A stretch of 64,000 nucleotides of DNA from Squalus acanthias. Taxonomy: Eukaryota. Position 1 is the first letter of the stretch. Every line of letters begins with the position of its first letter. Below the pieces are notes generated by a model. That model saw only the letters and a list, made by a program, of their open reading frames with translations. It was not told the origin of the DNA and did no database searches. Below are positions 13,368 through 57,869 of the stretch, piece after piece. The position numbers and the translations under genes were made by a program. The stretch covers positions 119,290,001-119,354,000 of the forward strand of contig CM059431.1 of assembly GCA_030390025.1 (NCBI GenBank), in the 5' to 3' direction.

Positions 13368-13401
13368 AAAGCCTGTGCCAAACAGGACTGTGAATTAGTC
13401 T

Positions 13402-19517: not shown

Positions 19518-20936
19518 TTAGGAGGTGTGGACGAGACGGTGCGGTGGTCTGATGGGCTGGCCGGAGTGGCTCTTGTAGGACGCTGGTGGACGTGGAACGG
19601 CCGGGCGTGGAGCAGCCGGGTGAACCGGCTTGAGGGCAGGTCGGCCGCATGGAGGTGGACGAGCTACAGGGACCTGCTCACCGGGCTCCGCGCGTGCTGG
19701 CTTGAGTCGGTCAACCGACACTTTTTCTGTCCTATCGCCCACTTGCAGGGTGAAAAATTTGTCCCCAGCCTGTAGCACCTTGTAGGGCCCGTCGTACGGG
19801 GGTTGAAGGGGCCCGCGGTGGGCGTCGTGCCGGACGAAAACAAACCGTGCCTGGTGCAGGCTTAGTGGGACATGTGAGGTGGATTCGCCGTGTCGGGCAA
19901 TGGGCACTGGGGCGAACTGCAGCGCCGGTGAGGTGAAGTTGTGGCGTTGCTGGTCGGCTGACCAGGGTGTCATGGTGGTGGGCAGGAACTCACCGGGTAC
20001 GCGCAGCGGCTGACCGTACACGAGCTCTGCTGCCGATGCGTGGAGGTCTTCTTTAACCGCGGTGCGCAGGGCGAGGAGGACCCACGGAAGTCGGTCGGTC
20101 CAGGCGCCGTCCGGGAGGCTGGCTCGAAGAGATGCCTTCAAGGATCTGTGGAACCGCTCACACAGTCCGTTGGCTTGGGGGTGGTACGCTGTGGTGCGGT
20201 GAATGGTCACCCCGAGATTGCGTGCGACGGCGGTCCAGAGTTCAGAGGGAAATTGCGGACCTCTGTCCGACGTCATGACGGAGGGGACGCCGAACCGTTC
20301 GACCCAAGTGCTGACGAAGGCTCTGGCGATGTCGGTGGTGGTGGTAGAGGTCAGTGGAATTGCCTCGGGCCAGCGTGTGGTGCGGTCAACGTAGGTCAGC
20401 AAGTGCGTCTGGCCTTGCGACAGTGGCAGGGGCCCGACGACGTCCACGTCGATGTGGTCGAATCTCCGCGAGGGGACGGTAAACTCCTCGAGGGGTGCTT
20501 TCGTGTGTTGCTGTACCTTGGCCCGTTGGCAGGCTAGGCAGAAGTTGGCCCAAGTGCGCACATCCTTGCGAAGGCCGCGCCAGACGAAGCGGTTGGCTAC
20601 CAATTTGATGGATGCGCAGGCGCCGGGGTGGGAGAGGTTGTGGAGAATGTCGAATACCTGGCGGCGCCAGGACGCTGGGACGACGGGCTGAGGTTGACAT
20701 AGGGATATGTCGCACTTGACCGTGACTGCGGTCGGGCCACAGGCGACGTCGGCCAGGCGTAGCCCTGGTAGGTTGGTGGGTGCGGAGAGCAGATCAGGGT
20801 CGGTGATCTGGTCTGCTGCGAGTTGAGCGTAGTCGACTGACAGGTGTGCGGCGTGGATGGCGGGGCGGGAAAGGCAGTCAGCTACCACATTGTCTCGGCC
20901 GGAGACGTGTTGGATGTCCGTGGTGAACTCGGACAC
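19518..20936 (-). pseudogene. Gypsy integrase (frameshifted from the RT-RH frame at ~20965)
   Basis: HHCC zinc finger (H..LSHPG...CLACQ), DDE core (HIDVDVVGP, SDRGPQF, NGLCERFH) and a GPY motif (PYDGPYKV). Confidence 0.9.
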
Positions 20937-22099
20937 TGCCGCGAGCTGGCGCTGCTGCCTGGCGACCAGGAGTCGGTTGTCTTTGCCATTGCGAATGTCA
21001 GGGGCTTGTGGTCGACAAACGCAGTGAAGGGGTGACCCTCAAGCAAAAACCGGAAATGGCGGACCGCCAGGAACAGCGCGAGGAGTTCGCAGTCGAATGT
21101 GCTGGACTTGACCTCCGGGGGGTGTAGTTGGCGGCTGAAGAAGACAAGTGGTTGCCAGGTGCCATCGACCCACTGCTCATACACGACGCCGACCGCGTGG
21201 TCGGAGGCGTCCGTGGTGAGCGCTACCCTGGCATTGGGCCGTGGGTGCGCGAGCAGGGTGGCGTTGGCGAGCGTGGTCTTGGTGGAGTCGAAGGCGGCGG
21301 ACGCGTCTGCCGTCCATTCGACCGCCATCTTGCCGCTCCTGCCCCAGAGGGCTTCATACAGGGGCCTCATGAGGGACGCCGCTTTGGGGATGAAGCGGTT
21401 ATAGAAATTCACCATCCCGAGGAACTCCTGGAGGCCTTTGATGGTGGTGGGGTGGGGAAATTGTTGGACGTCCTGCACCTTGGTGGGCAGGGGAATGGCC
21501 CCAGCATGGGTGATGTGGTGGCCGAGGAAGTCAATCTTGTCCAGGCCGAACTGGCATTTGGCTGGGCTGAGGATGAGCCCGTGGTCGCTGAGGCGCCCGA
21601 ACAGGATGCGAAGGTGTTCGAGGTGTTCCTGCTTGGAGGAACTGGCTACCAGGATGTCGTCCAGGTAGACGAACAGGAACTTCAGGTCCCGAAGGACCGA
21701 GTCCATGAGCCGTTGGAATGCCTGGGCCGCGTTTTTGAGGCCGAAGGGCATCCGCAGGAACTCAAACAGGCCGAAGGGGGTGATTACGGCCGTCTTGGGG
21801 ACGTCCGCGGGATGGACGGGGACTTGGTGGTAGTTTCGCTGATATGCTGAGGCCGTAAATTTTTTAAGGAGCGCTGTTCTGAGATGTGCGTACTTGTCTT
21901 CCTCTGGTAGGTTCTGCAGCATTGTCCAAACCTTGGAAACTGCGACGCTACCGAGTGATGTGACGAGATAGTCGTACTTCGTCCCATCTGTGGTGATATT
22001 TCGCAGCCGGAAGCGGGATTCAGCTTGGAGAAACCAGGCTTCGGACTGGTTTTCCCAAAACTCCGGCAGTTTCACGGAAACTGCGTTCATGTCCGCCAT
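20882..22099 (-). pseudogene. Gypsy Gag N-terminus fused in frame to partial RT-RNase H
   Basis: VKLPEFW...AWFLQAES (Gag) runs directly into YHQVPV...KTAVITPFGLFEFLRMPFGLKNA...YLDD (RT), then TTDAS, ELLA, DHKPL (RNase H). Confidence 0.9.
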
Positions 22100-22869
22100 T
22101 GCAGTGCTCGGAATACGTTCTGAGCGTCGGGGTCACCAATGTTGAGGCTGCCGCGAAACACGAATGGAGGCTGAATCCATATGTGGAAAACAAAAAACTT
22201 TAATTCAACTGCATGGCACAAAAATGGCTGCACCGAAAGCTCCCAGAATTCAAGGGCAACCTCTGAGGCCCCGCCCGCTCCTGCCTTAAAGGTAAGGTGC
22301 CTTAAAGGGAAGGTGCTGGATTTTTGTCCACGGACGGAAGAGTGGATTATGCTCGTTTAGGTGGCGATCCGCCACACAGTGCAGTTAGTTTCTGCAGGAC
22401 ATCCAGGAAACCAGTGCTTCCGGGTATCCTATCCAAAACTCTTCCCCCCACCGTGCTCCCTCCCCACCCCATAAACATCGGGGCCAATTTGTAGATTTCA
22501 CTTACAACTGGAATTGACATTTAGGGATGGATTTGAACTTTCACTGCCATCAATTGAAATGGATTGTATGACGGGCAGACAATCCGCTGCTGTCAGTTTT
22601 CCAGCCAGCAGTGAAAATTAAAATGTTCCCTTAATCTACATATTTACAGGATTAATAACATTTTAGGAGCGATTTTAACCGTCCCTGCTCAGCAGAAACC
22701 AAATGCGTAGGCAGTTGAAATTGTCCGGATATCTGGATCTCAGCATTTTCCACTTTAACCTGCCCTTCAGAAGATGGTGCACGAGACATTCCTGTTCCCA
22801 TAAAAAGAGGCAGGGATAAGCCATTAAGCCAGCTAACCAGTTAGTCTTACTTCAGTTGTTGTTAAATAC

Positions 22870-29104: not shown

Positions 29105-29497
29105 TTACATAAGAACATAAGAACATAAGAAATAGAAGCAGGAGTAGGCCAATTGGCCCCTCGAGCCTGCTCCGCCATTCAATAAGATCATGGCTGATCT
29201 GATCCTAACTGCCAATCTACTATCACAGAACCATCTCCTAAACCTAACAGAATTGGACATACGAGATAGGAGCAGGATCAGGCTACACGGCCCCTGGGCC
29301 CGCTATGCTACCCACAGGGCCATGACCGATCCGAACCTAGACTCATGTCCAAATTCCTGCCCGCTCCCCGTAACCCTTAATTCCCTTTACTTCTAGGAAA
29401 CTGTCTATTTCTGTTTTAAATTTATGTAATGATGTAGCTTCTACAGCTTTTTCGGGCAGCATATTCCATGGACCTACCACCCTCTGAGTGAAGAAGT
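29105..29497 (-). mobile_element. Short CR1 3'-end fragments
   Basis: (cataagaa)n tail and FFTQRVV..WN.LP...GIKGYG on the minus strand. Confidence 0.8.
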
Positions 29498-31630
29498 GAA
29501 GGGGTTGACGGTGGATAGGCAATGGCAAACATTCAAAGACTGCATGGATGAACTACAGAATTTGTTCATCCCAGTGTGGCATAAGAATAAAACAAAAAGG
29601 GTGACTCAACCGTGGCTAACAAGGGAAATTAGGGATAGCATAAGATCCAAAGAGAGGGCATATAAATTGGCCAGAAAAAGCGGTAGCCCTGAGGATTGGG
29701 AGCAGATAAAGATTCAACAAAGGAGGACAAAGGGATTAATTAAGAAGGGGAAAATAGAATATGAAACTAAGCTTGCTGGGAACATAAAAACTGACTGTAA
29801 GAGCTTTTATAGATATGTGAAGAGAAAAAGATTAGTGAAATCAAGTGTAGGTCCCTTGCAGTCAGAAGCGGGGGAAGTTATAATGGGGAACAAAGAAATG
29901 GCAGACCAATTAAATGCATATTTTGGTTCTGTCTTCACAAAGGAGGACACAAATAACCTCCCAGAGATGTTGGAGAACATACGATCTGATGAAAGGGAGG
30001 AACTGAAAGAAATCAGTATTTGCAGGGAAATGGTGTTAGGGAAATTGACGGGATTGAAGGCCGATAAATCCCCAGGGCCTGATAATCTACATCCTAGGGT
30101 ACTTAAGGAAGTGGCCCTAGAAATAATAGATGCATTGCTGATCATCTTCCAACATTCGATGGAATCTGGAACTGTACCCATGGATTGGAGGGTAGCCAAT
30201 GTTACCCCACTATTCAAAAAGGGTAGTAGAGAGAAAGCCTGACATTGGGGAAAATGCTAGAGTTCATTATAAAGGATGTAATAGCTGAGCACTTGAAAAA
30301 CAGTGACAGGATCGGACAAAGTCAACATGGATTTACAAAAGGTAAATCGTGCTTGACTAATCTACTGGAATTTTTTGAGGATGTAACTGGGAAAATAGAT
30401 AAGGGAGAACCAGTAGATGTGGTGTATTTGGACTTTCAAAAGGCTTTCGATAAGGTCCCGCATAAGAGATTAGCGTGTAAAGTTAAGGCGCATGGGATTG
30501 GGGGCAAGGTATTGACTTGGATAGAGAACTGGTTGGCAGACAGAAAGCAGAGAGTAGGAATTAATGGGTCTTTTTCCGAGTGGCAAACAGTGACTAGTGG
30601 GGTACCGCAGGGATCGGTCCTTGGACCCCAGCTATTCATAATATACATTAATGATCTAGATAAGGGAACTAAATGTAATATCTCCAAGTTTGCAGATGAC
30701 ACAAAGCTGGGTGGGAGTGTGTGCTGCGAGGAGGATACCGAGAAACTCCAGGATGATTTGGACAGGTTGGGTGAGTGGGCAGAAGCGTTGCAGATGCAAT
30801 ATAACGTGGATAAGTGCGAGGTCATCCACTTTGGTGGCAAAAACAGAAAGGCAGACTATTATCTGAATGGCAATAGATTGGGAGAAGGGGAAGTGCAACG
30901 AGACCGAGGTGTCCTTGTGCACCAGTCGTTGAAAGTAAGCATGCAGGTGCAGCAGGCGGTGAAGAAGGCAAATGGTATGTTGGCCTTCATAGCGAAAGGG
31001 TTTGAGTATAGGAACAGGGATGTCCTGCTGCAGTTGTACAGGGCCTTGGTGAGACCACACCTTGAGTACTGTGTGCAGTTTTGGTCGCCTTATCTGAGGA
31101 AGGATGTTCTTGCCATGGAAGGAGTTCAGCGAAGATTCACAAGGCTGATACCTGGGATGGCAGGAATGACATATGAGGAGAAATTGGGTCGATTGGGCTT
31201 ATCCTCACTGGAGTATAGAAGAATGAGAGGGGATCTCATCGAAACATATAAAATTCTGACAGGTCTGGACAAACTAGATGCAGGAAGAATGTTCCTGATG
31301 GTCGGAGAGTCCAGAACCAGGGGTCATAATCTAAGGATAACGGGTAAACCATTTCGGACAGAAATGAGGAAGAATTTCTTCACCCAGAGAGTGGTGAACC
31401 TGTGGAATTCTCTACCACAGAAGGTAGTTGAGGCCAAGCCATTAAATATATTCAAGAATGAGTTAGATATATTTCTTAAAGCTAAAGGTATCAAGGGATA
31501 TGGGGAGAAGGCAGGTACAGGGTACTGCGTTTGGATGATCAGCCATGATCTCATCGAATGGCGGAGCAGGCTCGAGGGGCCGAATGGCCTACTCCTGCTC
31601 CTATCTCCTATGCTTCTATGTTTCTATGTT
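29497..31630 (+). mobile_element. CR1 LINE, 5'-truncated ORF2 (RT), small deletion at ~30240
   Basis: [35 protein letters not shown]. Tail (tatgtttc)n. Confidence 0.95.
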
Positions 31631-32045
31631 TCTCATCTCAGTTTTGAAAGAGCAGCCCCTTATTCTAAGAATATGCCCCCTAGTTCTAGTTTTGCCCATC
31701 ATCGGGAACATCCTCCCCGCATCCACCCGATCCAACCCCTTCACAATCTTATATGTTTCAATAAGATCGCCTCTCATTCTTCTGAACTCCAATGAGTAGA
31801 GTCCCAATCTACCCAACCTCTCCTCATATGTCCATCCCCTCATCCCCGGGATTAACCGAGTGAACCTTCTTTGTACTGACTCGAGAGCAAGTATGTATTT
31901 TCTTAAGTATGGACACCAAAACTGTATGCAGTATTCCAGGTGCAGTCTCACCAATACCTTGTACAACTGAAGCAATACATCCCTATTTTTATATTCTATC
32001 CCCCTAGCAATGAAAGCCAACATTCCATTGGCCTTCTTTATCACT
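31631..32045 (-). mobile_element. CR1 ORF2 fragment, tail-to-tail with the preceding copy
   Basis: KKANGMLAFI...LEYC.QFW.P...RRMRGDLIETYKI. Confidence 0.9.
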
Positions 32046-33109: not shown

Positions 33110-34763
33110 TGTAAGGGTCCCGTGTCTCAGACGGTGCCGGTGCGAGGTTAGGCCTTCGTTGCCTAATACTATTGCTTGCTCTGGTCTCCGACCAGCCTTT
33201 TTGTAATAAGCACCTGTGAGTGGTTTGACCCACTCGCCCTTACGGTTCTAACACTGGACTTAGGTGCAGGGAGCAGTAATGCAGAGAAAACTCAAATAGA
33301 CCCGGTTGAATAGTACGAATTGGAAATCTTTATTGCATAGCGTCCAAAATCACGAAGTACATGTCATAGGTGCAAATTAACGAGAGTACAAGTATACATA
33401 CATTCATAAAGCTTGGTCTATGGAAATGAAGAACGCACGGCACATCGTAAAAAGGGGAACACATTATACTTTAACCTTAATAAAACCACCCTCCCTTAAC
33501 AATACCTACACTACGTCTAGATTTGTAGGATCGTAAAACATGCTCACCACTCGTGTTACTTCGGAGAATTTTAAAGTGAGGCACTCAGCTCGTTTCGCTG
33601 CAGCGCCTGACTGTCACGTGTTTGGAAGGGTCTCTGTACCCCACTTGTTTATTTTCGCTGCTGCGACAAGCAGGCCAGACTCCCTGTTGTCATGAAGAAC
33701 TCGACGGACCTCGGACACAGTTCAAAGAAGAGTCTTCCTGTGCTCGACACCGGTTGTCGGTAGATTTCAATGAAGAGTTCTTTATTATATTTTCGGGCGC
33801 GGTCGGGGTTTACTGACCGTGGCGGCACGTGAATTCTTCTTCTTTTCTTGTCGTCTCGTCTCGTCTCTTCGGGCCTCCGGGTCCAGACACCGTTTACCGA
33901 CACTCGGGATGGTGTACCCTGTTACTTGCCCTTGTCGGGGCGGCTCGTTCCGATTGAGCTCCACCCAACATTCGAATAACCGACCAGTACGGCTAAAAGT
34001 CAAGAGTCAACAAAGTCCAGAGAAACACAGAAGGCTGCTCGTCCAGCAGAGCGATGCTCGAGGTTAAGAATAAGAGAATAAGAGTTCAGCAGTCAGCAGC
34101 GAGATAAGAGAGTCAAGAGACCGATGGACATTTGTTCACTATAGTTATAGTGCTGTGTCTGCTTATCTCCCACCAAAATCTTAATGTTTGTCTTTTGTGT
34201 AATATTGGCGCTCAAAACTCCCAGCATGGGGCGATTCTTCTCTTTAACGGGTTTCGGTAGCACCTCAAACTGGCCAACTACCAGTTAATGTTTTCCCCAT
34301 TGTTGACCCAGCCAGGATTGTATGAATCGTCTCCCTGACTGGTTTTGGGGGCCCCCGAATACTTGCTTAATCACCCGTCGATGTCTCTCTCATTGTAGAG
34401 CCGGGGGGGTATTTGTGTATTGATGTGTCTGGATGGGCCTTCGATTGCCCAGTACAATGGTCCTTACTTGTGCATGGAAAACGATTCCAGCACTTATATC
34501 TTTGCTATTGTTCCAAATGCAAACGGGTTGCATCCTGTCTTTATCAGTGTTTATCGAGTATGATCCAATCTTATATTGAATGTTTATTCGACGACATCTT
34601 GTCTGCCCACTGTATTTCTGGAAGCTTCTGCCACGATGCGCAGCGGCCATTTTACAGGCTTCTGCGTCCTGTATATCATGACAGCATTTTGTTTAATAAA
34701 ACTGATCAAACAAATCTGCTTCTCTCTAGTTATTTCGAATCGCGATAATAGCGAAACTTTACA
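33110..34763 (-). repeat. 3' LTR of the pol-less element
   Basis: Plus strand tgtaagggtcc...aaactttaca. Roughly 97-98% identical by eye to 40624-42270. Candidate minus-strand CCAAT at ~34204-34208, TATAA at ~34145-34149 and AATAAA at 33329-33334. Confidence 0.95.
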
Positions 34764-35159: not shown

Positions 35160-37508
35160 TTACGCGGTACTTTCCTCGTTCACGTGCACGTAACGTTCTC
35201 TCCACTCCCCTGTGTTCTCCTGCTTTGTGAGGCGTTTGCCTCTTTTGCAGTGTACGACCAATAGGTACACTACAATCACGACTTGACACACTACCAAAAT
35301 GTGGGAGGCTATCCTGATCCATGACGGAACTTCAATATTAGTGAACAGGTCCCACCACGGTGGGTCTACTATGTCTAGTATCTCTGTCCCTATCTCTACA
35401 GTATTTTGTTCCAGGGTGTAAAAAATTTTTGTGATACCATGACGGCTTTTAAAATCTTGGTGAGGTGTTCAAGGAGAGGGGGAATGATGTATCCGAAATG
35501 CGACGAATCGCTGCAAGTCTGTGAAATTCTCTTTTACTGTGAGGTGAACAGTGGATGGTTCAGGGATCGGGACAATTCGCTGTTGTGCCACTTGAACTTC
35601 AGCCCTGGGTTTAAAACAGAAACTGCTGTCACTCACCGGACACCGGCTGTGCTGTCCATGCTGGTAGTGTTGCGCTGCAGTGGTAACGCAATACATTCCA
35701 CCCCCTATGTATGCCACCTGTGGGGGCACATGATCTTGTGTCATTGCTTCCATGGTGCAATTCATGGGCTTCGCGCCAGCCGTTCTGAACCCGCATTGTG
35801 GTGTTAAAAAGGCATTCAAGTGCTGGGGACACAGTATGATGTGTGCTCCCCGGCCACAACAACCCGATAGGTCGGTACCTGTCATTGTTTGCTACCAGCG
35901 GATGATGTAAGGTGGGACCGCTGCGTAGCGAATGTGGGCTCCCCCCTGAATGACACCAATGTTCTCCACCCGATACACCGGGGCGGGCTTTGCTGTGTCG
36001 CCCAACACCGGCATACGTAGTACTATACCCATGATGGTATGGTTTGACTGTCCGCAGTCCATGGGGACTGGGTATGCCTCTGAGGCTAGCCTGAGCTGGC
36101 ACGGGCTTAATGCGTTCTGAAAAGGGTGGAGCGCCTGCAGGTGTTTGTTACTTATCCAGGACGGGACCAAACCTTGTTTTAAATCCTCCAAATTACTGCG
36201 GCCCTCGCCCAGTAACCACGCCCCGTATAGTACGCACACCTCGTTCTGTGCAGCTTGATCGGATGCATTCCGATCTTCCCTGATCAGGGCATTTACCGTT
36301 CTCGCATGCTTCTCCAGCTCTGCTATAATCTCTTTTAAGTGTAGTGTCATGGCCTGATCCTCATGTAACTCAGACCCTACTACCTTGTTTTCGCTTGTGA
36401 GGATGCTTTTTAACTGTGTTTTTAAACCGTTGATCTGGGTCTGCAGCTCCACGTTGTCTAGAGCGTTGACCACAGATGTTCCCGTATTAAAAGCAGTGAA
36501 CACATCATTCACAACACCCCTTCTTTGTCTCCCCACCTGACCCAAAACTTCGTGTGGTGCGGTGTACAAGCTTGTTTTGTCAATCTCTGCAAAATCAAAC
36601 TCGTAGAATTGTCTGAACATGTTTGTTAACAGGACCTGGTACAATTGTTCCGTTTCTTTGGGACACCACTCTGGTAAACGCACCTCGGTGAGATTTAGAA
36701 TCACTGAGGCCACCGCGTAATGTACCCCTTGATATAGTATCTGGTCTGTTGGCACCAGTACCAGACCATTCCCGGGCCCCTTAGTGGTTTTAGGGCACCC
36801 TTCTTCCTGAGCCAAAGCCACCGGAATCGTGGGCGGAGACTTGCGTGGGCGTGTGATGAGTTCAGTGGCGTTTACCGGGATCGGGGAGAATGGAGCTCCG
36901 CACCCCTTTGTGCTGACATCCCACCTCATCCCTTTCCCGTTATCCTGCCACTGGTGTACGAAAAATATGGATATACCCTTGTGGCAAACGTACTTCGATC
37001 CCCACATACAAACATATATTCCCTCATCCGGTTCCCACCATTTGTCCCAACAGACTTTCAATTGTCCGTTAGTCCCCGTAATTGTCCGATGGGTATTGTT
37101 ACCCAATCGCTCCCACTCGACCGAGGAATTTCTCATAGTCTTGCTTAACTTCCGTAACCACCACCATCGGCTCAATGGGACCTTCCCATTGCATGTCAAA
37201 CAAATCCTTTTGCCGACGGTGACGCTGATTCTGGGTGCAATGATCCTCACTCTGGGGCACAGCAAAGAAGTCTCTTTGTAGGCAAATCCGGATGCTCTGG
37301 AGTATTCCGTCGAATTCGTTCCCAGCCATCCCAGCCACCTTCCCTTATGGAAATAAGTGGCGGTTTCCTCAGCCTCTTGCTCCCCGGTCCCATCCGTCGC
37401 GATGGGGCCCGTGTCCCCGGAGCAACCGAACACAACGACATCCTTGGTGAGGCCCCGATAGGCCAATCCATATCCGATCGTTGCGAGCACTATCAGAATC
37501 CTTTCCAT
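35160..37508 (-). pseudogene. env: Envelope glycoprotein (~782 codons): signal peptide, Ig domain, class I fusion (F-like) ectodomain, TM, cytoplasmic tail; disrupted
   Basis: Hydrophobic N-terminus MERILIVLATIGYGLA; Ig motif C106...W117...DEGIYVC167; furin site RQRR|GVVNDVFTAF followed by a heptad helix. In-frame TAG at 35892-35894, then a Cys-rich region and a second lesion at ~35420-35500. The frame continues to ...WIRIASHILVVCQVVIVVYLLVVHCKRGKR...STA with TAA at 35160-35162. Confidence 0.85.
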
Positions 37509-37779: not shown

Positions 37780-38796
37780 CTAAATTCTGCGAAGGCTGCC
37801 ACGTGCTTTTCCCAGTGGCGGGGGGGCACTGACCCCTTCCTTTGATCTGCCGCAGCCTGTCGTCGCTGCGCTGGGACTGGGATCTCCCTGGGCTGCCTTG
37901 AACTTACGCCTGGGGGTGTACGAGGGATTTGACCACAACTTCCTGGGCTGGGGTGTCCGACTTGACCTACGGAGGGCTACCTTGGGCAAGATTTCCAGGA
38001 CCGACGGACCGGGAACCGAGACTTCCACCGTCACGGCCTGTGGTCCCACCACAGCTGCCGGCTCTGTCTCCCCTGGCTCCGCCCCCCTGGGCTCGGGATC
38101 TGCGGTTTCCGACTCCACCTTACTTGCTTCCCCAGTAAGTGGAACTCCACTCGCAATCCCTATCTCCCCTATGCTTGGGTCGAGGGCGGAACCTCCGTCC
38201 TCCGACCCCACCACCTCTCCGACCGGGTCACTACCTTGGTTGAGCTCTCCGAGCTCTTCCTCATCTGAATCCCATGACCAAGAAAAGATCCTACACTTTT
38301 CCAAAATGTCTTCTCCCCTCACGCAAGCTGCTTTACCGGCCTGTGTGCCCTGCGGTTCTACCCGGGGCTGAGAGTCCCCACTCGCAGGTCTGGCCCCTCC
38401 CCTAATACAGGCCACCGCCCCTGCTTGTGCATTCTGTGTAATCTCGCCTGCTGGAGGCTGAAGATTTCTATTCTGTTTTAGTTTGGGCAACTCTGCTACC
38501 ATGGCTTGCAACTGCGGGGTGGTGAATTCCCCCGGGGTTGTTGAGCAAACCATCCCTCTGGCTTTGGATAGGGCTTGGGTCAGACCTTTTATCCTTTCCT
38601 CACAGGGCCCATGGTTTAAAACCTCATACTCCCTGCTCCTGGCTACCATGTAGGCTGCCTTTATGTCTCTAAACTGCCCTTCTAGCCCATCTACTTTCCC
38701 CATTAAACGGGCGTTCTCCTCCCGCAAGGCCTGCTCTTTTAACCTGGCCTCCTTACAGGAGGCCCCCTCCTGTGTGTGTCTTTCAAGGGGACACAT
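37780..38796 (-). CDS. ORF2 (338 aa): truncated Gag paralog (coiled coil + first capsid-like helix) with an acidic/Pro-rich then basic tail; in frame with gag
   Basis: aa16-84 align without gaps to Gag aa122-190 (24/69 identical). QLQAMVAELPKL resembles Gag QLRAMINHVRKL. The ORF is uninterrupted. Confidence 0.75.
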   Translation of the reverse strand: MCPLERHTQEGASCKEARLKEQALREENARLMGKVDGLEGQFRDIKAAYMVARSREYEVLNHGPCEERIKGLTQALSKARGMVCSTTPGEFTTPQLQAMVAELPKLKQNRNLQPPAGEITQNAQAGAVACIRGGARPASGDSQPRVEPQGTQAGKAACVRGEDILEKCRIFSWSWDSDEEELGELNQGSDPVGEVVGSEDGGSALDPSIGEIGIASGVPLTGEASKVESETADPEPRGAEPGETEPAAVVGPQAVTVEVSVPGPSVLEILPKVALRRSSRTPQPRKLWSNPSYTPRRKFKAAQGDPSPSAATTGCGRSKEGVSAPPPLGKARGSLRRI

Positions 38797-38820
38797 GTAG
38801 GCAGGCTGCGCTAGTTCCAG

Positions 38821-40551
38821 TCAGAAGTCTGGGTTGTATGGGGCTGTTGCTACCTTCCCGTGTGAGGTCATAAGAGACCGCATGGCTCCTAACATCGACT
38901 CGATCGCGTCGGGATGGATAGGCACACCAGCTCCTCTCTCAGAGACAGGCGTTTGGGCTCGGACTGTGCGAGCTTTGTCCCTGGAGTCCTTCCAGGGATT
39001 CCTGTAGTTTTTACGCCAGTGACCTGTCTTCCCACACCCGTAACAAACACCACTGGTTTGTGGGGCGCGATTTCCCTCCTGATGCCACTCTTTCTGAGCC
39101 GGAGCTGCAGGCTTTGCTTCATGCACCTTTCCCTTAAGGGGACGCGCTCCCGTGCTCCTAGTGTTCCGATACCCTATGGTGAGTCGATTTAGGACAGACT
39201 CCTCCGTTGTGGCGGCGTTAGTGGGATCAAACCATGCTCTGGCCTGCTCCCTGATGGCTGGCAAGCTGTTGGCTACTAGACACCTGAGCCAATGAGCTTT
39301 CCCGGCGCCGTTAAGATAGGCGCGCGCTGGCGCACCTGGGCAGCTACGCTGGTAGACTGGCCACAGCCCGTCGGCGAAAACCTTCGGGGGTTCTCCCTCC
39401 ATCTTTATGGTTTGACTCAATCTGACGAACGGACCTTCGTCATCCGCCCCTAAAACTTCTAGGACCTCGTCCCGTAACTCCTCATAGGTTTTATTTCCCT
39501 TCTTGCTCTCGTCTGAGAGACACTGAAGGATCGAGCTATCTAACGAGAACAGCAACATTTTGGTCTTTTCCTCATCGTCGCAGCCATTAATTGCTGCGGT
39601 CTGTTCTACTTCCCTAAAATGTACGGAAGGGTCGTCTGACTCGGACAGTTTCCGTACATGGTTAATCATTGCTCTCAGCTGGTGTGAGCTGTGGGGCAAT
39701 ACAAGCTGGTTCAGGACATCCCCGTCATCCCCATTGGCTGCATTCGGGCCTCTCTTGTGACCTCGGAGCGGACACATCGGTCCCGGTCCCGACTCTACCT
39801 CCAGGGACTGTCCTACCTGGGGCACCTCCTTCTCTATTTCCACCACTTCCTCCCTTACCCAGGTTGCCGAATAGCTGGGTGGCGCGGAGGGCACAGTGGC
39901 AAATACCTCTTCTGCTTTGTCTGGTAGGGATTTTGGGAATTCCCTACCCACCTGTGGCTGGTTTGCTGACGGGCTGATGAGGCACACCAAGCCGTTTGCC
40001 TTATTCAGGGCCTCTCTTAGGTTCCCTATCTCCTTCTGGCAAACACTGTGGTCGGCTCCCTCATGCCTATCCTCGAGGGCCATCTTGTATGTCGCCCTAA
40101 CTCCCTTCAAGCTTTCTTCCTGGGCTTTTATCTGGTTAGCAAGGCGGACACACCGTTCTCTAATCCTACCCTCGTTTAATTTCGCTTCCGTGACCTGACA
40201 TTCTAAGTAATCAATTTTAGCCTCATGGTGGTTGGCTACTATTTGGCGTTCCTGATGTAATGCATTAAATGATACAATGAGTTTTTGTCCTCCCGTGATC
40301 TTTTCCTCCATCTCAACTTCCAGTTCCCTGATCTGAGCTGCCTGTGCCACAATGACCTGGTCCGAAAGTTGGACTTGCTTCTTGTAGCACATCAGCCAGT
40401 CCGCTTTCTCTACCGACTTCTTATGCTCTTTACTGCCTGTCCATTTGATGGCGGCGTCTAGCGGACGCTTATCCATCAGTAGGTCACTTATCCACCTTTT
40501 GGTTAAGTTAACCTTCCCAAACACATCGTCAGCTACCCTCTGATCCATCAC
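38821..40551 (-). CDS. gag: Gag-like protein (576 aa)
   Basis: First ORF after the PBS. N-terminal coiled coil, PSAPPSY late domain, helical capsid-like region (DPSVHFREVEQTAAINGC.., EGEPPKVFADGL), and zinc knuckle CYGCGKTGHWRKNY with the last C replaced by Y (TAC). Confidence 0.88.
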   Translation of the reverse strand: MMDQRVADDVFGKVNLTKRWISDLLMDKRPLDAAIKWTGSKEHKKSVEKADWLMCYKKQVQLSDQVIVAQAAQIRELEVEMEEKITGGQKLIVSFNALHQERQIVANHHEAKIDYLECQVTEAKLNEGRIRERCVRLANQIKAQEESLKGVRATYKMALEDRHEGADHSVCQKEIGNLREALNKANGLVCLISPSANQPQVGREFPKSLPDKAEEVFATVPSAPPSYSATWVREEVVEIEKEVPQVGQSLEVESGPGPMCPLRGHKRGPNAANGDDGDVLNQLVLPHSSHQLRAMINHVRKLSESDDPSVHFREVEQTAAINGCDDEEKTKMLLFSLDSSILQCLSDESKKGNKTYEELRDEVLEVLGADDEGPFVRLSQTIKMEGEPPKVFADGLWPVYQRSCPGAPARAYLNGAGKAHWLRCLVANSLPAIREQARAWFDPTNAATTEESVLNRLTIGYRNTRSTGARPLKGKVHEAKPAAPAQKEWHQEGNRAPQTSGVCYGCGKTGHWRKNYRNPWKDSRDKARTVRAQTPVSERGAGVPIHPDAIESMLGAMRSLMTSHGKVATAPYNPDF

Positions 40552-40600: not shown

Positions 40601-40618
40601 GTCCTGCTGCGGTCGCCA
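40601..40618 (-). promoter_or_regulatory. Primer-binding site, tRNA-Arg
   Basis: Minus strand TGGCGACCGCAGCAGGAC, 5 nt after the 5' LTR. From memory it matches 17/18 the complement of the vertebrate tRNA-Arg(TCG) 3' end (TGGCGACCGCGGCAGGAC). Confidence 0.8.
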
Positions 40619-40623
40619 TTTTC

Positions 40624-42270
40624 TGTAAGGGTCCCGTGTCTCAGACGGTGCCGGTGCGAGGTTAGGCCTTCGTTGCCTAATACTATTGCTTGCTCTGGTC
40701 TCCGACCAGCCTTTTTGCAATAAGCACCTGTGAGTGGTTCGACCACTCGCCCTTACGGTTCTAACACTGGACTTCGGTGCAGGGAGCAGTAATGCAGAGA
40801 AAACTCAAATAGACCCGGTTGAATAGTACGAATTGGAAATCTTTATTGCATAGCATCCAAGATCATGAGTACATGTCATAGGCGCAAATTAACGAGAGTA
40901 CAAGTATACATACATTCATAAAGCTTGGTCTATGGAAATGAAGAACGCACGGCACATTGTAAAAAGGGGAACACATTATACTTTAACCTTAATAAAACCA
41001 CCCTCCCTTAACAATACCTACACTACATCTAGATTTGTAGGATTCGAAAACATGCTCACCACTCGTGTTACTTCGGAGAATTTTAAAGTGAGGCACTCAG
41101 CTCGTTTCGCTGCAGCGCCTGACTGTCACGTGTTTGGAAGGGTCTCTGTACCCCACTTGTTTATTTTCGCTGCTGCGACAAGCAGGCCAGACTCCCTGTT
41201 GTCATGAAGAACTCGACGGACCTCGGACACAGTTCAAAGAAGAGTCTTCCTGTGCTCGACACCGGTTGTCGGTAGATTTCAATGAAGAGTTCTTTATTAT
41301 ATTTTCGGGCGCGGTCGGGGTTTACTGACTGTGGCGGCACGTGAATTCTTCTTCTTTTCTTGTCGTCTCGTCTCGTCTCTTCGGGCCTCCGGGTCCAGAC
41401 ACCGTTTACCGACACTCGGGATGGTGCACCCGGTCACTTGCCCTTGTCGGGGCGGCTCGTTCCGATTGAGCTCCACCCAACATTCGAATAACCGACCAGT
41501 ACGGCTAAAAGTCAAGAGTCAACAAAGTCCAGAGAAACACAGAAGGCTGCTCGTCCAGCAGAGCGATGCTCGAGGTTAAGAATAAGAGTTCAGCAGTTAG
41601 CAGCGAGATAAGAGAGTCAAGAGACCAATGGACATTTGCTCACTATAGTTATAGTGCTGTGTCCGCTTATCTCCCACCCAAATCTTAATGTTTGTCTTTT
41701 GTGTAATATTGGCGCTCAAAACTCCCAGCATGGGGCGATTCTTCTCTTTAACGGGTTTCGGTAGCACCTCAAACTGGCCAACTACCAGTTAATGTTTTCC
41801 CCATTGTTGACCCAGCCAGGATTGTATGAATCGTCTCCCTGACTGGTTTTGGGGGCCCCCGAATACTTGCTTAATCACCCGTCAATGTCTCTCTCATTGT
41901 AAAGCCGGGGGGGGGCATTTGTGTATTGATGTGTCTGGATGGGCCTTCGATTGCCCAGTACAATGGTCCTTACTTGTGCATGGAAAACGATTCCAGCACT
42001 TATATCTTTGCTATTGTTCCAAATGCAAATGGGTTGCATCCTGTCTTTATCAGTGTTTATCGAGTATGATCCAATCTTATATTGAATGTTTATTCGACGA
42101 CATCTTGTCTGCCCACTGTATTTCTGGAAGCTTCTGCCACGATGCGCGGCAGCCATTTTACAGGCTTCTGCGTCCTTTATAATCATGACAGCATTTCGTT
42201 TAATAAAACTGATCAAACAAATCTGCTTCTCTCTAGTTATTTCGAATCGCGATAATTGCGAAACTTTACG
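40624..42270 (-). repeat. 5' LTR of the pol-less element
   Basis: Plus strand tgtaagggtccc...aaactttacg (terminal CA mutated to CG), followed by the TSD GTAT. Confidence 0.95.
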
Positions 42271-43599: not shown

Positions 43600-45950
43600 A
43601 CACAGCATTACCATCGCCGAATCCCCCACCATCAACATCCTGGGGCTCACCATTGACCAGAAACTTAACTGGACCAGCCACATAAATACTGTGGCAACAA
43701 GAGCAGGTCAGAGGCTAGGTATTCTGCGGCGAGTGTCTCACCTCCTGACTCCCCAAAGCCTTTCTACCATCTACAAGGCACAAGTAAGGAGTGTGATGGA
43801 ATACTCTCCACTTGCCTGGATGAGTGTAGCTCCAACAACACTCAAGAAGCTCGACACCATCCAGGACAAAGCAGCCCGCTTGATTGGTGTAAGGGGGACG
43901 TGTCTCAGACGGTGCTGGTGCGAGGTTAGGCCTTCGTTGCCTATACTATTGCTTGCTCTGGTCTCCGGCCAGCCTTTTTGCAATAAGCACCTGTGAGTGG
44001 TTCGACCCACTCGCCCTTACGGTTCTAACACCTGGACTTAGATGCAAGGGTAAGTAATGCAGAGAAAACTCAAATAGACCCGGTTGAATAGCACGAAATG
44101 AAAATCTTTATTGCATGGCGTCTAAAATCATGAAATACATGTAATAGACGCAAATCAAAGAGAGTACAAGTATACACACGTTCATAAAGCTTGGTCTATG
44201 GAAATGGAGAACACACGGCACATCGTAAAAAGTGGAACACATTATACCTTAACCTTATAAAAAACCACCCTCCCTTAACAATACCTAAACTACATCTGGA
44301 TTTGTAGGATCGGAAATCATGCTCACCACTCGGCTTACTTCGGAGATTTTAAAGTGAGGCACTCAGCTCGTTTCGCTGCAGCGCCTGACTGTCACGTGTT
44401 TGGAAGGGTTTCTGCACCCCACTTGTTTACTTTCGCTGCTGCGACAAGCAGGCCAGACTCCCTGTTGTCATGAAGCAGTCGATGGACTCAAGCCATCTTA
44501 GAATTCAAAGAAGGATCTTCCTGTGTTGCAGTACATGTAGAAGTCGGTAGAACTCAAAGGAAAGTTCTTTTAGTTATATTTTCGGGCAGTGGTCGGGGTT
44601 TACTGACCGTGGCGGCACGTGGAATTTCTTCTCGTCTTCTTCTCTTCTCGTCTCCTCGGGCCTCCGGGTCCAGATACCGTTTACCGACACTCGGGATGGT
44701 GTGCCCTGTTACTTGCCCTTGTCGAGGCGGCTCGTTCCGATTGAGCTCCACCCAACACTCGAATAACCGACCAGTACGGCTAAAAGTCAAGAGTCAACAG
44801 AGTCCAGAGAATCAAATGACCAAAAGTCCAGCCCCAAGGAACAGCTTCAGCAAGGGTCACCAGAGAGATAAGAGTTCAGCAAGTGAATAAGAGAGTGATG
44901 GACATTTGTCCTCTATAGCTATACTGTTGTGTCCGCTTTATCTCCCGCTCAAATCTAAATGTTTATCCTTTGTGTGATTTTGGCGCTTAAAACTCCCAGC
45001 ATGGGGCGATTATCTTCTTAACGGGTTTTGGTAGCACTTGAAACTGGCCAACTATCTGTTAATGTTTTCCCCATTGTAGAGCCAGCCAGGATGTGTATGA
45101 ATCGTCTCCTCGACTGGTTTTGGGGCCCCCCGAATACTGGCTTAATCACCCGCCAATGTCTCTCTCATTGTTGAGCCGGGGGGGTATTTGTGTATTGATG
45201 TGTCTGGATGGGCCTTCGATTGCCCAGTTCAATGATCCTTACTGTGCATAGGAAAACGATTCCAGCACTTATATCATTGCTATTGTTTAGAATGCAAACG
45301 GGTTGCATCCTGTCTTTATCAATGTGTACCGAGTATGATCCAATCTCATACTGAATGTATATTCGACGCCATCTTGTCTGCCCACTGTATCTCTGGAAGC
45401 TTCTGCCACGATGCGCGGCGGCCATTTGGCAGTCTTCTGTGTCCTTTAATATTAGAACAGCATTTCGTTTAATAAAAATGATCAATTGAATCTGCTTCTC
45501 TCATGTTATTTTGAATCGCGATAATTGCGAAACTCTACAGTAGCACCCCCTCTACCACCTTAAACATTCACTCACTCCACCACCGGTGTAACGTGGCTGC
45601 AGTGTGTACCATCTATAAAATGCACTGCAGCAACTTGCCAAGGCTTCTTCGGCAGCACCTCCTAAACCCGCGACCTCTTCCATCTAGAAGGACAAGGGCA
45701 GCAGACTTATGGGAACACCACCACCTCCAAGTTCCCCTCCAAGTCACACATCATTCTGACTTAGAAGTATATCGCTGATCCTTCATCGTCGCTGGGTCCA
45801 AATCCTGGAACTCCCTCCCTAACAGCACTGTGGAAATACCTTCACCACACAGACTGCAGCGGTTCAAGAAGGCGGCTCACCACCACCTTCTCAAGGGCAA
45901 TTAGGGATGGGCAATAAAGGCTGGCCTTGCCAGCGATGCTCACATCCCAT
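43600..45950 (+). mobile_element. Non-LTR LINE 3' fragment (CR1/L2 group) split by the solo LTR
   Basis: ORF2 C-terminus (AGQRLGILRR...IYKAQVRSVMEYSPLAW...IQDKAARLIG) stops at 43887 and resumes at ~45544 (TPSTTLNIHSLHHR...) into the 3'UTR. Confidence 0.85.
43888..45539 (-). mobile_element. Solo LTR of the same family as 33110-42270, older subfamily
   Basis: tgtaagggggacgtgtctcag...aaactctaca, colinear with the proviral LTRs but visibly more diverged. The 4-bp flanks TTGG / GTAG look like a decayed TSD. Confidence 0.92.
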
Positions 45951-47228
45951 AAAAACAAATTTAAAGAAAGATTGGAGAACTGAGTGCTCAGATCAGAACG
46001 TCTGATTATCTAATGGTTTATCAGTAGTGGAGCCTTGCAAAATATACCCTTTAATCATAGAATCAGTAGAATCTTACAACACAGAAGGAGGCCATTCGGC
46101 CCATCATGCCTATGCCGGTTATTTGAAAGAGCTGCCCAATTTAATCCCACACCCCAGCTTTTTCCTCATAACACTGCAAATTAGTCCTCTTCAAGCACAT
46201 GTTCCTTTCTGTTACTTCAATGGATAAGAAAATCAGGCAGGGTGTATAACGGGCCAACCTGCTCTTGGCAGTTTACCATCGAACGATAAAAGTTAAAATC
46301 CACACCAGGAAATAAACGTTTCAAGGGAAGGGTCCACACCCATAATATCAACTCTCTCCACAGGTGCTGACTGACCTGCTGCATATTTCCAGCTTTTCTG
46401 TTTCAGGTTTCTGGTATTTTGATTTTCACTTGCTTTATTTATATCCTTTAATGTTGCTGTGTGATTGAAAAAACTGCAAAGCTGCAGGTTTTCTGATATA
46501 AAGTGAGATGATTGCCATGTAGTAGCTTATTTCATGTTTTATTTAAAGTTTGGCTGACTAAATTAAGCACGTGAAAAGATTTTAGTATTGATAAAACTAG
46601 TATTGAGTTTTTAATAATGCATTGCACTCCTTTCATTTTCTTCTTAGCAATGAACAAGAGGAGCGTTATGGGAAAATACAAAGGTTAACTCGGAGTCAAT
46701 AAATGTCATTTAAGCCAATTATTTTTTAGCACTTTTTCATATCTTCATATGAATGTTTTATTTTGGAAGCTTAAATTCAGGGTCAACCTGTAATCATTGA
46801 ATAAATTCAGAAATACAAAACTGGTAAAGTATCAGCCCTTGTAATGAGACACTTCCTCATGAGTGCTAAATCTGTGTCCGAACTTTGTACACCCGATAAT
46901 GTATTTTAACTTCTTCTACATGCGTTTGCACCCAGACCTCTCAACTGCATTTAATTTCCAATACTTTAAGCCATTCTTGTGGCCTTCCTGAATGATCCTG
47001 TCAATTGGATACAAATTAATGCTGTATTATTGGCAGTTCGGCATTGCTGACTTGTGCCTGTTATATCGACTCTTACAGCCATCAGACAGAGAAGATTTGC
47101 ATCTCATCAGTCTGAGCTGGTCCCAGAAGTGCTTAGTCAATGTTCCACAAACCTGCATCGAGTCTCCCTTCAAATGTTTGTTGGTGATAACTAAAGCTCA
47201 ACTGGTCATTATTAAAATAAAAATCTTA

Positions 47229-50200
47229 CCTATACGTCATTCCTCTCACTATGAAGGCCAACATACCATTTGCCTTCTTAACCGTCTGCTGCACCTGCAT
47301 GCTTACCTTCAGCGACTGGTGCACAAGGACACCCAGGTCTCGTTGCACTTCCCCTTTTCCCAATCTATTGCCGTTCAGATAATAATCTGTCTTCCTGTTT
47401 TTGCCACCAAAGTGGATAACCTCGCATTTATCCACATTATACTGCATCTGCCATGCATCTGCCCAATCACCCAACCTGTCCAAATCATACTGGAGTTTCT
47501 CTGCATCCTCCTAACATGCGCACACGCCCACCCAGCTTTGTGTCGTCTGCAAACTTGGAGAAATTACATCTAGTTCCCTCGTCTAGATCATTGATATATA
47601 TTGTGAATAACTGGGGTCCTAGCACCGATCCCTGTGGTACCCCACTAGTCACTGCCTGCCACGCGGAAAAAGACCCGTTTATTCCAACTCTTTGCTTCCT
47701 GTCTGCCAACCAGTTCTCTATCCAAGTCAATACCTTACCCCCAATCCCATGTGCTTTAACTTTGCACACTAATCTCTTATGTGGGACCTTATCGAAAGCC
47801 TTCTGAAAGTCCAAATACACCACATCCACTGGTTCTCCCTTATCTATTCTACCAGTTACATCCTCAAAAAATTCCAGTAGATTAGTCAAGCATGATTTAC
47901 CTTTTGTAAATCCATTTTGACTTTGTCCGATCCTGTCACTGTTTTCCAAGTGCTCTGCTATTGCATCTTTTATAATGGACTCTAGCATTTTCCCCACTAC
48001 CGATGTCAGGCTTACCGGTCTATAATTCCCTGTTTTCTCTCTACCACCTTTTTTAAATCGTGGGGTTACATTAGCTACCCTCCAATCCATGGGAACTGTT
48101 CCAGAGTCTATAGAATTTTGGAAGATGACCAGCAATGCATCTACTATTTCTAGGGCCACTTCCTTAAGTACCCTAGGATGTAGATTATCAGGCCCTGGGG
48201 ATTTATCGGCCTTCAATCCCGTCAGTTTCCCGAACACCATTTCCCTACAAATACTGATTTCATTCAGTTCCTCCCTCTCATTGGACCCTATGTTCCCCAA
48301 CATCTCTGGGAAGTAATTTGTGTCCTCCTTTGTGAAGACAGAACCAAAGTATGTATTTCATTGGTCTGCCATTTCTTTGTTCACCATTATAAATTCCCCT
48401 GATTCTGACTGCAAGGGACCTACGCTTGACTTCACCAATCTTTTTCTCTTTATATATCGATAGAAGCTTTTACAGTCAGTTTTTATGTTCCCTGAAAGCT
48501 TACTCTCATACTCTATTTTCCCCTTCTTAATTAATCCCTTTGTCCTCCTTTGCTGAATCCTAAACTTGTCCCAATCCTCAGGTTTGCTGCTTTTTCTGGC
48601 CAATTTATATCTCCTCTCCTTGGATCTTATGCTATCCCTAATTTCCCTTGTTAGCCACGGTTGAGTCACTTTTTTTGTTTTATTTTTATGCCAAACAGGG
48701 ATGAACAAATTCTGTAGTTCTTCCATGCGATCTTTAAATGTTTGCCATTGCCTATCCACCGTCTTCCCTTTAAGTAACATTTCCCAATCCATCCTAGCCT
48801 ACTCGCGCCTCATACCATCGTAGTTTCCTTTATTTAAATTCAGGACCCTAGTCTCTGAGTCAACTACTTCACTCTCCATCTTAATGAAGAATTCTATCAT
48901 ATTATGATCGCTCCTCCCCAAGGGGCCTCGCACAACAAGATTGCTAATTAATCCTTTCTCATTACATAATACCCAGTCGAAGATGGCCTGATCTGTAGTT
49001 GGTTCCTTTATATATTGGTCCAGGAAACCATCCCGTATACACTCCAGGAATTCCTCCTCCACAGTATTGTTACTAATTTGGTTAGCCCAATCTATATGTA
49101 GATTAAAGTCACCCATGATAACTGCAGTGCCCTTATTGCACGCATCTCTAATTTCCCGTTTAATGCCATCCCCAACCTCAGCATTACTGTTTGGGGGTCT
49201 GTATACAACTCCCACTAATTTTTTCTGCCCCTTGGTATTTCTCAGCTCTACCTATACAGATTCCACATCATCAGAGCTAATATCCTTCCTTACTATTGTG
49301 TTAATCTCCTCTTTGACCAGCAATGCTACCCCACCTCTTTTTCCTTTTTGCCTGTCCTTCCTGAATATTGAATACCCCTGGATGTTGAATTCCCAGCCTT
49401 GGTCACCCTGGAGCCATGTCTCCGCAATCCCAATTATATCATATCCGTTTACATCTATTTGCGCAGCTAATTCATCCACCTTATTATGAATGCTCCTTGC
49501 ATTAAGACACAAGCCTTAAGGCTTGTTTTTTTAATACTCTTAGACATTTTAAAATTATTGTTTACTGTGGCCATGTTTGATTTACACCCTTGATTTCTCT
49601 GACTTCCACTTTTGCTTTTCTCCTTCCTGTCTTTTGCTTCTATCCTTGCTTCCCTTTCCTCTGTCTCCCTGCACAGGTTCCTAACCCCCTGCCATTTTAG
49701 TTTAAACCCTCCCCAACAGCACTAGCAAACACTCCCCCTAGGATATCGGTCCCGGTCCTGCCCAGGTGCAAACCATCCAGTTTTTACTGGACCCTCCTCC
49801 CCCAGAACCGGTTCCAATGTCCCAGGAATTTGAATCCCTTCCCCTTGCACCATTCCTCGAGCCACGTATTCATCTGAAATATCCTTCTATTTCTACTCTG
49901 ACTAGCACGTGGCACTGGTAGCAATCCTGAGATTACTACCTTTGAGGTCCTATTTTTTAATTTACCTCCTAACTCCCTATATTCAGCTTTTAGGACCTCA
50001 TCCCGTTCTTTACCTATATCGTTGGTACCTATATGCACCATGACAACTGGCTGTTCACCCTCCCCCTCCAGAATGCCCTGCAGCCGCTCCGAGACATCCT
50101 TGACCCTTGCACCAGGGAGGCAACATACCATCTTGGAGTCTCGTTTGCGGCCCCAGAAACGCCTATCTATTCCCCTTACAATAGAATCCCCTATCACTAT

Positions 50201-54844: not shown

Positions 54845-56500
54845 GGGAGATATCTATGCACGGACTGGTGTCTCTCAGTCCCCTCACGCTCAGGGAGGAA
54901 TCTGTACACTAACTGGTGTCTCTCAGTCTCCTCTCCCTCATGAAAATATCTATATATTGACTGGTGTCCCTCAGTCCCCCTCTCTCCGGGAGATATCTAT
55001 ACATTGATTGACGTCTCTCAGTCCCTCTCTCTCTGGGAGATATCTGTACACTGACTGGTGTCTCTCAGTCCCCTCTCTTTCAGAGAGATAACTATACACT
55101 GACTGGTGTCTCTCAGTCCCTCTCTCAATGAGATATATGTACACTGACTGGTGTCTCTCATTCCCCTCTCCCTCATGGAAATGTCTATACATTGACTGGT
55201 GTCTCTCAGTCCCTCTGTCTCCTGGAGATATCTGTACACTGACTGGTGTCCCTCAGTCCCCTCTCCATCAAGGAAATATCGCTACACTGACCTGTGTCTC
55301 TCAATCCCTCTCTCTTTGGGAGATATCTGTACACTAACTTGTGTCTCTCAGTTCCCTCTCTCTCTTTCAGGGAGATATCTGTAAGCTGATTGGTGTCTCT
55401 CAGTCCCCTCTCCCTCAGGGAGGTATCTGTACTCTGACTGATGTCTCTCAGTCCCTTCTCCCTCAAGGAGATATCTATACATTGACTGATGTCTCTCTGT
55501 CCCCTCTCTTTCAGGGAGATATCTATACAATGACTGGTGTCTCTCAGTCCCCCCTCCCTCAGACAGATATCTGTACACTGACTGGTGTCTCTCAGTCCCC
55601 CCTCCCTCAGACACATATCTGTACACTGACTGGTGTCGCTCAGTCCTCTCTCCCTCAGGGAGATACTTGTACACAGACTGATGTCCCTCAGCCCCCTCTC
55701 CCTCAGGGAGATATCTGTACACTGACTGGTGTCTCTCAGTCCCTCTCTCTCCGGGAGATATCTGTAAGCTGACTGGTGTCTCTCAGTCCCTCTCTCCCTG
55801 GGAGATATCTGCAAGCGGACTGGTGACTCTCAGTCCCTCTCTCTTTGGTAGATAGCTGTACACTGAATTGTTGTCTCTCTGTCCCCTCTCCATCAGGGAG
55901 ATACCTGCACACTGACCGGTGTCTCTCAGTCCCTCTCTCTCTGAGAGATATCTGTACACTGACTGGTGTCTTTCAGACCCCTCGCTCTCTCAGGGAGATA
56001 TCTGTCAGCTGACTGGTGTCTGCCAGTCACTCTCCTTCTGGTAGATATCTGTACACTGACTGGTGTCCCTCAGTACCCTCTCCATCAGGGAGATATCTGT
56101 ACACTGACCGGTGTCTCTCAGTCCCTCTCTCTCTGGGAGATATCTGTACACTAACTGGTGTCTCTCAGTTCCCTCTCTCTCTCTCAGGGAGATATCTGTA
56201 CACTGGCTGGTGTCTCTTAGTCACTCTCCCTCAGGGAGATATCTGTAAGCTGACTGGTGTCTCTCAGTCCCCTCTCCCTCAGGGAGATATCTGTACACTG
56301 GCTGGTGTCTCTCAGTCACTCTCCCTCAGGGAGATATCTGTAAGCTGACTGGTGTCTCTCAGTCCCCTCTCCCTCAGGGAGATATCTGTACACTGACTGG
56401 TGTCTCTCAGTCCCCTCTCCGTCAGGGAGGTATCTGTACTCTGACTGATGTCTCTCAGTCCCTCTCTGTCAGGGAGATATCTGTACACTGAATGGTGTCC
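54845..56500. repeat. ~45-48-bp minisatellite (~35 copies)
   Basis: Unit ~gggagatatctgtacactgactggtgtctctcagtcccctctccctca. Confidence 0.95.
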
Positions 56501-56745
56501 TCTTTGAGCGAGAGGGACTGAAGTATTTAAGATGGTCGCACACACACAAACACGGAGTCTATTGGATTGCATTTGGAGAATGGCTCTTGTCCTCAGTATA
56601 TATTAGATGATTTCTTTGCTATTTCCAATTGAGAACAATTAGTTAAATATTGTATAATTACATATGATGTGTACATAAGGTGATAGAAGTGTTATAAATA
56701 CTGCTTAAGCTCCTAGAAGCTGGCTTTTTGATTTTAACAGACTGA

Positions 56746-57633: not shown

Positions 57634-57869
57634 TTAATGTTCTTCTAACTTCCAAAAAATTGTTGAGGCTTGTAATCAAATTGTTTATTTTTGATTTTTC
57701 AGATTGATCTATAAAGTGCTGAACCCTTTTTGCAGTTTTTGAAATAAAACTATTCTCTCTGTCATGCAACATTATGGCTGGTTGACCCAGGACCATCCAA
57801 TTATAAGGCCAGTTGCTATGAGAAACTGTCCCAGCAGCGGCTGCAGTGAGGCTCGTTGCCATGGGATGT

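Follow-up and report, generated by a model that had tools for sequence, protein, structure and literature searches.

The window analysed here, 64,000 nucleotides of Squalus acanthias contig CM059431.1 (assembly GCA_030390025.1, positions 119,290,001 to 119,354,000), carries on its minus strand an LTR retroelement with a gag gene, a second open reading frame directly behind it (ORF2) and an env-like frame (Table 1). No pol was found within the 9.16-kb provirus. The two LTRs, each 1.65 kb long, are identical at 1617 of 1646 aligned positions (97-98%; 29 differ), and the element is flanked by a 4-bp target-site duplication, ATAC, at 42274-42271 and 33109-33106. Named homologs of its proteins come from Rhinoraja, Scyliorhinus, Rhincodon and Heptranchias. 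We consider it most likely that the element is a pol-less, helper-dependent derivative of a parental virus. Overlapping the primer-binding-site-like stretch, an ATG opens a frame of 23 codons (40619-40548, minus strand) that resembles the N-terminus of the related protein P0001; in the provirus copy this frame is out of register with gag, and its closing TGA overlaps the start codon of gag.

Table 1. Features of the element, in positions of the window
Feature	Position	Strand	Description
LTR element	42270-33110	minus	9.16 kb; order LTR-gag-ORF2-env-LTR, without pol
5' LTR	40624..42270	minus	begins CG, ends CA
Primer-binding-site-like stretch	40601..40618	minus	starts TGG, 5 nt past the LTR; read from sequence
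gag	38821..40548	minus	575 aa; coiled coil at the N-terminus, then capsid and a single degenerate zinc knuckle; ends in TGA
Pre-capsid motif MCPLR, Gag 258-262	39763..39777	minus	likely capsid N-terminal x/P site
gag stop and 3' context TGA CTG GAA	38815..38823	minus	candidate readthrough site
ORF2 segment A, aa 1-23	38752..38820	minus	post-stop segment
ORF2 segment B, aa 24-97	38530..38751	minus	Gag-type coiled coil
ORF2 segment C, aa 99-116	38473..38526	minus	first helix of Gag capsid
ORF2 segment D, aa 117-141	38399..38472	minus	linker partly repeating a tail motif (by eye in translation)
ORF2 segment E, aa 142-346	37780..38398	minus	post-integrase Pol tail; TAG stop
env-like frame	35160..37508	minus	RQRR site and fusion-peptide-like stretch
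3' LTR	33110..34763	minus	TG...CA; purine-rich tract ahead of it

The Gag protein is predicted to fold into a long coiled coil and a capsid-like domain. Its best structural match is the C-terminal capsid domain (CA-CTD) of MLV, to which residues 377-462 align with Z 8.7 and rmsd 2.6 over 78 positions, a Z that is moderate for a helical domain and comes from a model with a pLDDT of 51. The model suggests a retroviral/Ty3-type capsid with an N-terminal coiled coil, as is often seen in lokiretrovirus Gags. Foldseek returned no match to Gag at E <= 0.001, and a search of viral and metagenome contigs for related loci found nothing. Seven related Gags have a normal C-terminus. All of them stop 8-17 residues past the same G(K/Q)(V/I)A motif, where the provirus Gag also ends, and none is a fusion; the five of them that were aligned show 37-61% identity. 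An eighth, P0002, is truncated earlier. The zinc knuckle at Gag residues 502-515 is degenerate in the provirus copy (Pfam E 0.029, against 3.4e-6 in P0001).

The env-like frame is broken by two in-frame stops (35894-35892 and 35471-35469) and found no significant match among Pfam or PDB sequences. A possible resemblance to the paramyxo/pneumovirus F-type Env of lokiretroviruses was judged by eye; the single-sequence model of the frame has a pLDDT of 32. Env aa 92-167 give a weak Ig-like signal, with E 0.46 in Pfam and E 0.6-1.5 against antibody light chains.

Reading along the minus strand, gag closes with TTC TGA (38823-38821) and is followed by CTG GAA CTA GCG CAG CCT GCC TAC and an ATG at 38796. 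Beyond the TGA this frame remains open for 346 codons with no intervening stop, and the two other frames are closed at the junction; such a long in-frame continuation exceeds chance. The predicted fusion across the stop would measure 575 aa of Gag, one residue at the stop and 346 aa of ORF2, or 922 aa in all. The letters from which an earlier note on this DNA had argued for stop-codon readthrough were all borne out: the TGA, the eight sense codons, the ATG at 38796 and the tetrapeptide MCPL occurring twice.

What lies behind the stop is, judging from its sequence matches, an in-frame mosaic of a Gag coiled coil, a capsid piece and a post-integrase Pol tail. Segment B is 34% identical to the element's own Gag (E 8e-12) and 35-46% identical to the Gag-like proteins P0001 and P0006-P0010, and segment C shares 10 of 14 residues with P0008 (325-338; E 0.014). 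Residues 142-345 of segment E are 42% identical over 208 aa to P0005 (E 2e-35). P0005 itself begins with an integrase C-terminal domain, and its residues 1-50 share 78% identity with the end of the RNase H-integrase protein P0012. Other copies were followed in contigs from four of 20 runs, X1, X6, X8 and X11 (346, 206, 158 and 30 contigs), which represent organisms A, B and D and were compared over 38330-38960; contigs lose rare variants, and their summed depth does not equal copy number. Contigs from all three organisms run across the joins of the mosaic. Among the 24 of 78 loose contig ends listed, those at 38752 carry on by eye as Gag, those at 38527 and 38473 as capsid sequence, and those at 38398 (in X1, X6 and X8) as the end of integrase.

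All Gag-derived and Pol-derived pieces of ORF2 stand in their native frames. Built of Gag and Pol pieces, this in-frame mosaic thus occupies the slot of pol, and the junction is most likely the old gag-pol junction; segment A would be the native start of the parental pol. Reverse transcriptase was found neither in the provirus copy nor among the relatives recovered, of which P0012 comprises RNase H and integrase only (best PDB match foamy-virus integrase, E 8e-34). No full Pol stood among five HMMER matches over 1.84 billion representatives, none of 7998 candidates was a longer ORF2 relative (607-2000 aa), which is weak evidence, and atlas searches with ORF2 and Env gave nothing usable.

The junction is also kept in other copies. 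Neither a change within 38814-38823 nor an indel within 38702-38960 is found among the 40 of 44 variants listed for the four runs and three organisms, and the expectation of the earlier note that stop and frame would be conserved is upheld: the variants listed include no sense codon at the stop and no indel in the spacer. One X6 contig (record 21) spans the TGA with more than 31 nt on either side, and two further records reach across it with shorter flanks. In three contigs (one from X1 and two from X11, with loose ends at 38823) the TGA is joined to a divergent gag tail. As these match through the TGA and differ in the tail, the stop is either common to diverged subfamilies or a point of recombination.

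The ATG at 38796, by contrast with its place in the provirus copy, is a minority allele lost in most copies: the letter that gives CTG accounts for 14643/14643 of the depth in X1, 283/283 in X6, 139/139 in X8 and 100/113 in X11. Coverage of the junction by X11 was not counted as expression, since it is only a guess that this run is RNA. Of the first three in-frame Met codons in ORF2, that at aa 9 is altered in 89-100% of depth, that at aa 40 in 37-51% and that at aa 58 in 100%. Since the ATG is a minority allele, both the spacing of eight codons before an ATG and the reading MCPL apply to the provirus copy and not to the family. The length variants listed in ORF2 all keep the frame, measuring 3, 69 or 138 nt apart from a single cluster that adds 6 nt net. 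Its listed substitutions, 22 non-synonymous and 12 synonymous, are near neutral, and none of the 34 makes a stop, with about 1-2 expected, a difference that is not significant. Contig depth at 38682-38747 rises to 207,000 in X1, against roughly 13,000-20,000 at the junction, which fits a coiled-coil piece common to the gag of a more abundant sister family.

An instructive comparison is offered by the lokiretroviruses, as described in the parts of PMC7947760 and its supplement available to us. Like them, the element has a coiled coil ahead of capsid, an Env with a basic cleavage site and a fusion-peptide-like stretch, and a gag whose closing TGA stands directly before CT, the frame behind it being in register; the integrase C-terminus of P0005 is also similar, by eye, to that of Loki-Pma. 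It differs from them in its Gag zinc knuckle, its longer Env N-terminus and its lack of pol. In the supplement, gag and pol are fused in 10 of 24 consensus sequences and pol is separate in 14. Junctions were counted in 10 of the 24: seven of these readable junctions have TGA-CTA (Bsp, Ofa, Dcl, Lro, Cne, Pyo and Sau), Tfu has TGN-CTA, the fused Pfl and Str have CGA-CTA and GGA-CTA, and CTA is kept throughout. By eye, pol is in frame at six of the seven TGA-CTA junctions, Bsp shifting by 1 nt further downstream. A TGACTAG at the start of pol in Loki-Lch was not counted, being out of frame with the annotated pol. The TGA-CTG-G of the window is one base away from the TGA-CTA-G of these viruses, none of which was reported among the six chondrichthyan genomes screened in that study. 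Our searches for related proteins and loci showed no pol-bearing relative across the gag-ORF2 junction, which is therefore tied to the junctions of lokiretroviruses by analogy.

Among four-base stop contexts, UGA-C is the leakiest. Gamma- and epsilonretroviruses, which the earlier note had named as precedents, share with the element an in-frame stop after the zinc knuckle (as in MoMLV and WDSV) with a pol-derived frame in register. The precedent holds to that extent, but the stop of MoMLV and WDSV is UAG, epsilonretroviral readthrough is without experimental verification, and MoMLV adds an 8-nt spacer and an H-type pseudoknot (PMC13517186, as far as available to us). The gammaretroviral type III signal (UAG, purine-rich spacer, H-type pseudoknot) thus differs from what the window holds, a UGA with no pseudoknot found, and the predicted product is enzyme-less, unlike theirs. 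A closer precedent is type II readthrough at UGACGG or UGACUA, as described in the available parts of the same review, which also place UGACUG at the readthrough site of an alphavirus, Trocara virus. The window's UGACUG falls within the broader alphavirus set, UGACUD or UGACGV, but outside the core UGACUA/UGACGG, having CUG rather than the better-documented CUA(G). With alphaviruses and the cellular genes that carry UGACUAG it shares the UGA-CU context, and sense-codon variants are known there as in two lokiretroviruses; it differs in its retroviral setting and in showing no conserved stem-loop downstream (PMC13517186, in part). UGA is also used by SSSV, ZFERV and a frog ERV according to the same parts of the review, and XtERV-S has an in-frame TGA (PMC8278194).

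Folding the RNA behind the stop, which the earlier note had put forward as a check, brought no support from a stimulatory structure. The 124 nt after the stop gave z -0.83, and values over lengths of 40-150 nt ran from +1.0 to -2.8 with none standing out; the lowest, for 150 nt, was rejected as evidence as the best of five lengths tried. Sliding windows across gag-ORF2 reach z <= -2 in 10 of 67 cases, the post-stop window not among them, and no H-type pseudoknot was found downstream of the TGA under the search criteria used. A hairpin window at 38780-38701 (z -3.6) was rejected as a conserved signal, with seven variants falling at 38754-38767. Frameshifting was rejected as well, since ORF2 shares the frame of gag and a shift at the only slippery-like heptamer, at 38957, would end in closed frames. 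With no structure after the stop, any readthrough that occurs probably depends on the local context and would be low.

We therefore favour, with a probability of roughly two in three, inherited UGA readthrough that yields a Gag-ORF2 fusion of about 922 aa at low level. The parental virus would have recoded gag-pol at this junction, and the site would survive in a derivative without pol. Gag would be translated from full-length RNA, most ribosomes stopping at the UGA and a small fraction inserting a residue and reading on, so that the fusion takes the place of Gag-Pol. The signal is probably a local, type II-like UGA-CU context that works without a pseudoknot. Having no enzyme, ORF2 would add to Gag another coiled coil of the same type, one capsid helix and the disordered tail that follows integrase, and the fusion may be co-assembled or otherwise useful and cut by a helper protease. 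The low-level product of about 920 aa envisaged by the earlier note thus retains the conserved stop and frame, the pol-derived ORF2 and the lokiretrovirus TGA-CTA in its favour, and loses the gammaretroviral precedent and the ATG.

Of the competing explanations, the one that survives best is that the junction is a silent relic, in which the TGA context and the open frame descend from one founder of a young family and ORF2 is not meaningfully translated. We consider this unlikely. It would suit the small number of LTR differences, the near-neutral substitution ratio of ORF2, the missing stimulatory structure and the CUG in place of CUA. Against it, all three joins that inform on frame preserve the native one, for which we estimate a chance of about 4%, every length variant listed keeps the frame, and the joins recur in contigs of three organisms.

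Less likely still is that ORF2 is made as a protein of its own. Its message might be spliced or re-initiated, or translation might begin at a CUG close to the stop, at Met90 or at Met107. The latter two (38553 and 38502) have strong Kozak contexts and show no variant among the 40 of 44 listed, and the ATG at 38796 does exist in the provirus copy and in a minority of X11 depth. That ATG, however, is rare and in a weak context, no pyrimidine-rich YAG acceptor was found in 39000-38600, the contig joints listed include no splice-like joint, and translation from Met90 would not account for the open coiled-coil segment ahead of it. The idea that the stop is a private nonsense change, for instance by CpG decay, in a normally fused frame is very improbable and largely refuted: sense codons do occupy the like position in two lokiretrovirus consensus sequences and the variants listed are 40 of 44, but these include no sense allele in four runs, diverged gag tails share the same TGA, and 7/7 related Gags end there.

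Returning to inherited readthrough, a further question is how such a fusion might be processed. Orthoretroviral capsids characteristically have N-terminal cleavage sites of the x/P type. The earlier note had pointed to MCPL both ahead of the capsid and after the stop as a repeated protease-site-like motif, and the two occurrences fared differently. The internal Gag motif is likely a capsid N-terminal x/P cleavage site, a reading backed by conservation in all seven Gags compared: a motif [MV][CY]P[LV][RL] stands just ahead of the capsid in the window Gag and in 6/6 homologs, with the proline invariant. The repeat itself is present in the provirus copy, where a search for MCP[LI] in all six frames of the window found two places, 39777 (Gag) and 38796, but its identity is at chance level and its M comes from the minority allele. 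When Gag was shuffled 20,000 times, 9.6% of the shuffles had a 4-mer in common with the first 15 residues after the stop, and ORF2 and Gag share six 4-mers. The post-stop segment also matches residues 269-280 of P0001 loosely (6/12 identical, E 4.7). It could be a protease-releasing site of the parental Gag-Pol, a Gag-derived piece or chance; cleavage at this putative site seems to us doubtful.

Other elements offer partial parallels. The mouse IAP 1-delta-1 is likewise a non-autonomous ERV whose internal deletion created a gag-pol fusion ORF, and it needs helpers, its fusion being reported to act in cis (PMC6466679, available to us in part). There, gag is partly deleted and fused constitutively, whereas the window Gag is whole and its fusion would be a low-level readthrough product with a second, Gag-derived coiled coil. 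The zebrafish BHIKHARI elements Bik-1 and Bik-2 are pol-less lokiretrovirus relatives with a coiled-coil and capsid Gag; according to the available parts of their description, they have a single gag ORF, with no second in-frame ORF and no env (10.1101/2024.03.25.586437).

In-frame gag-pol readthrough is itself textbook. What may be new is, to judge from the junctions compared, a type II UGA-CU context across the sister lineage of known retroviruses and, in the window, an enzyme-less parasite that seemingly retains a site for recoding followed by a mosaic frame that is still open. If this retention is real, the element is a natural system for learning what the product of readthrough does when it carries no enzymes. 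The word "readthrough" is absent from the available main text of PMC7947760, as is "lokiretro" from the available parts of the 2026 review PMC13517186, and the parts of PMC12440569 and PMC9040795 at hand held nothing further on the junction. We found no paper joining lokiretroviruses and readthrough in a search outside whose scope lay most subscription journals and Repbase notes, and the connection may be known elsewhere. A bolder extension, tentative and in our view more probably wrong than right, is that lokiretroviruses and their cartilaginous-fish relatives make Pol clade-wide by alphavirus-type UGA-CU(A/G) readthrough, and that selection has preserved the signal in the pol-less satellite lineage as a means of dosing a Gag fusion that lacks enzymes; the second coiled coil and the integrase tail of this fusion would help capture helper particles or integration machinery in cis.

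The window also contains other repeats. A solo LTR of a related subfamily lies at 43888-45539, is 87% identical and has no clear target-site duplication. On the minus strand, a GC-rich Gypsy-like element with short terminal repeats that are 98% identical occupies 19378-22379; its Gag-like start is joined straight to reverse transcriptase, with no protease seen, and an integrase frame follows. Two LINE reverse-transcriptase fragments (29433-31795 and 47226-48771) are about 90% alike and stand in opposite orientation, and tandem arrays are found at 12381-12710 (period 15 nt), 54850-56556 (about 47/95) and 57793-58338 (39).
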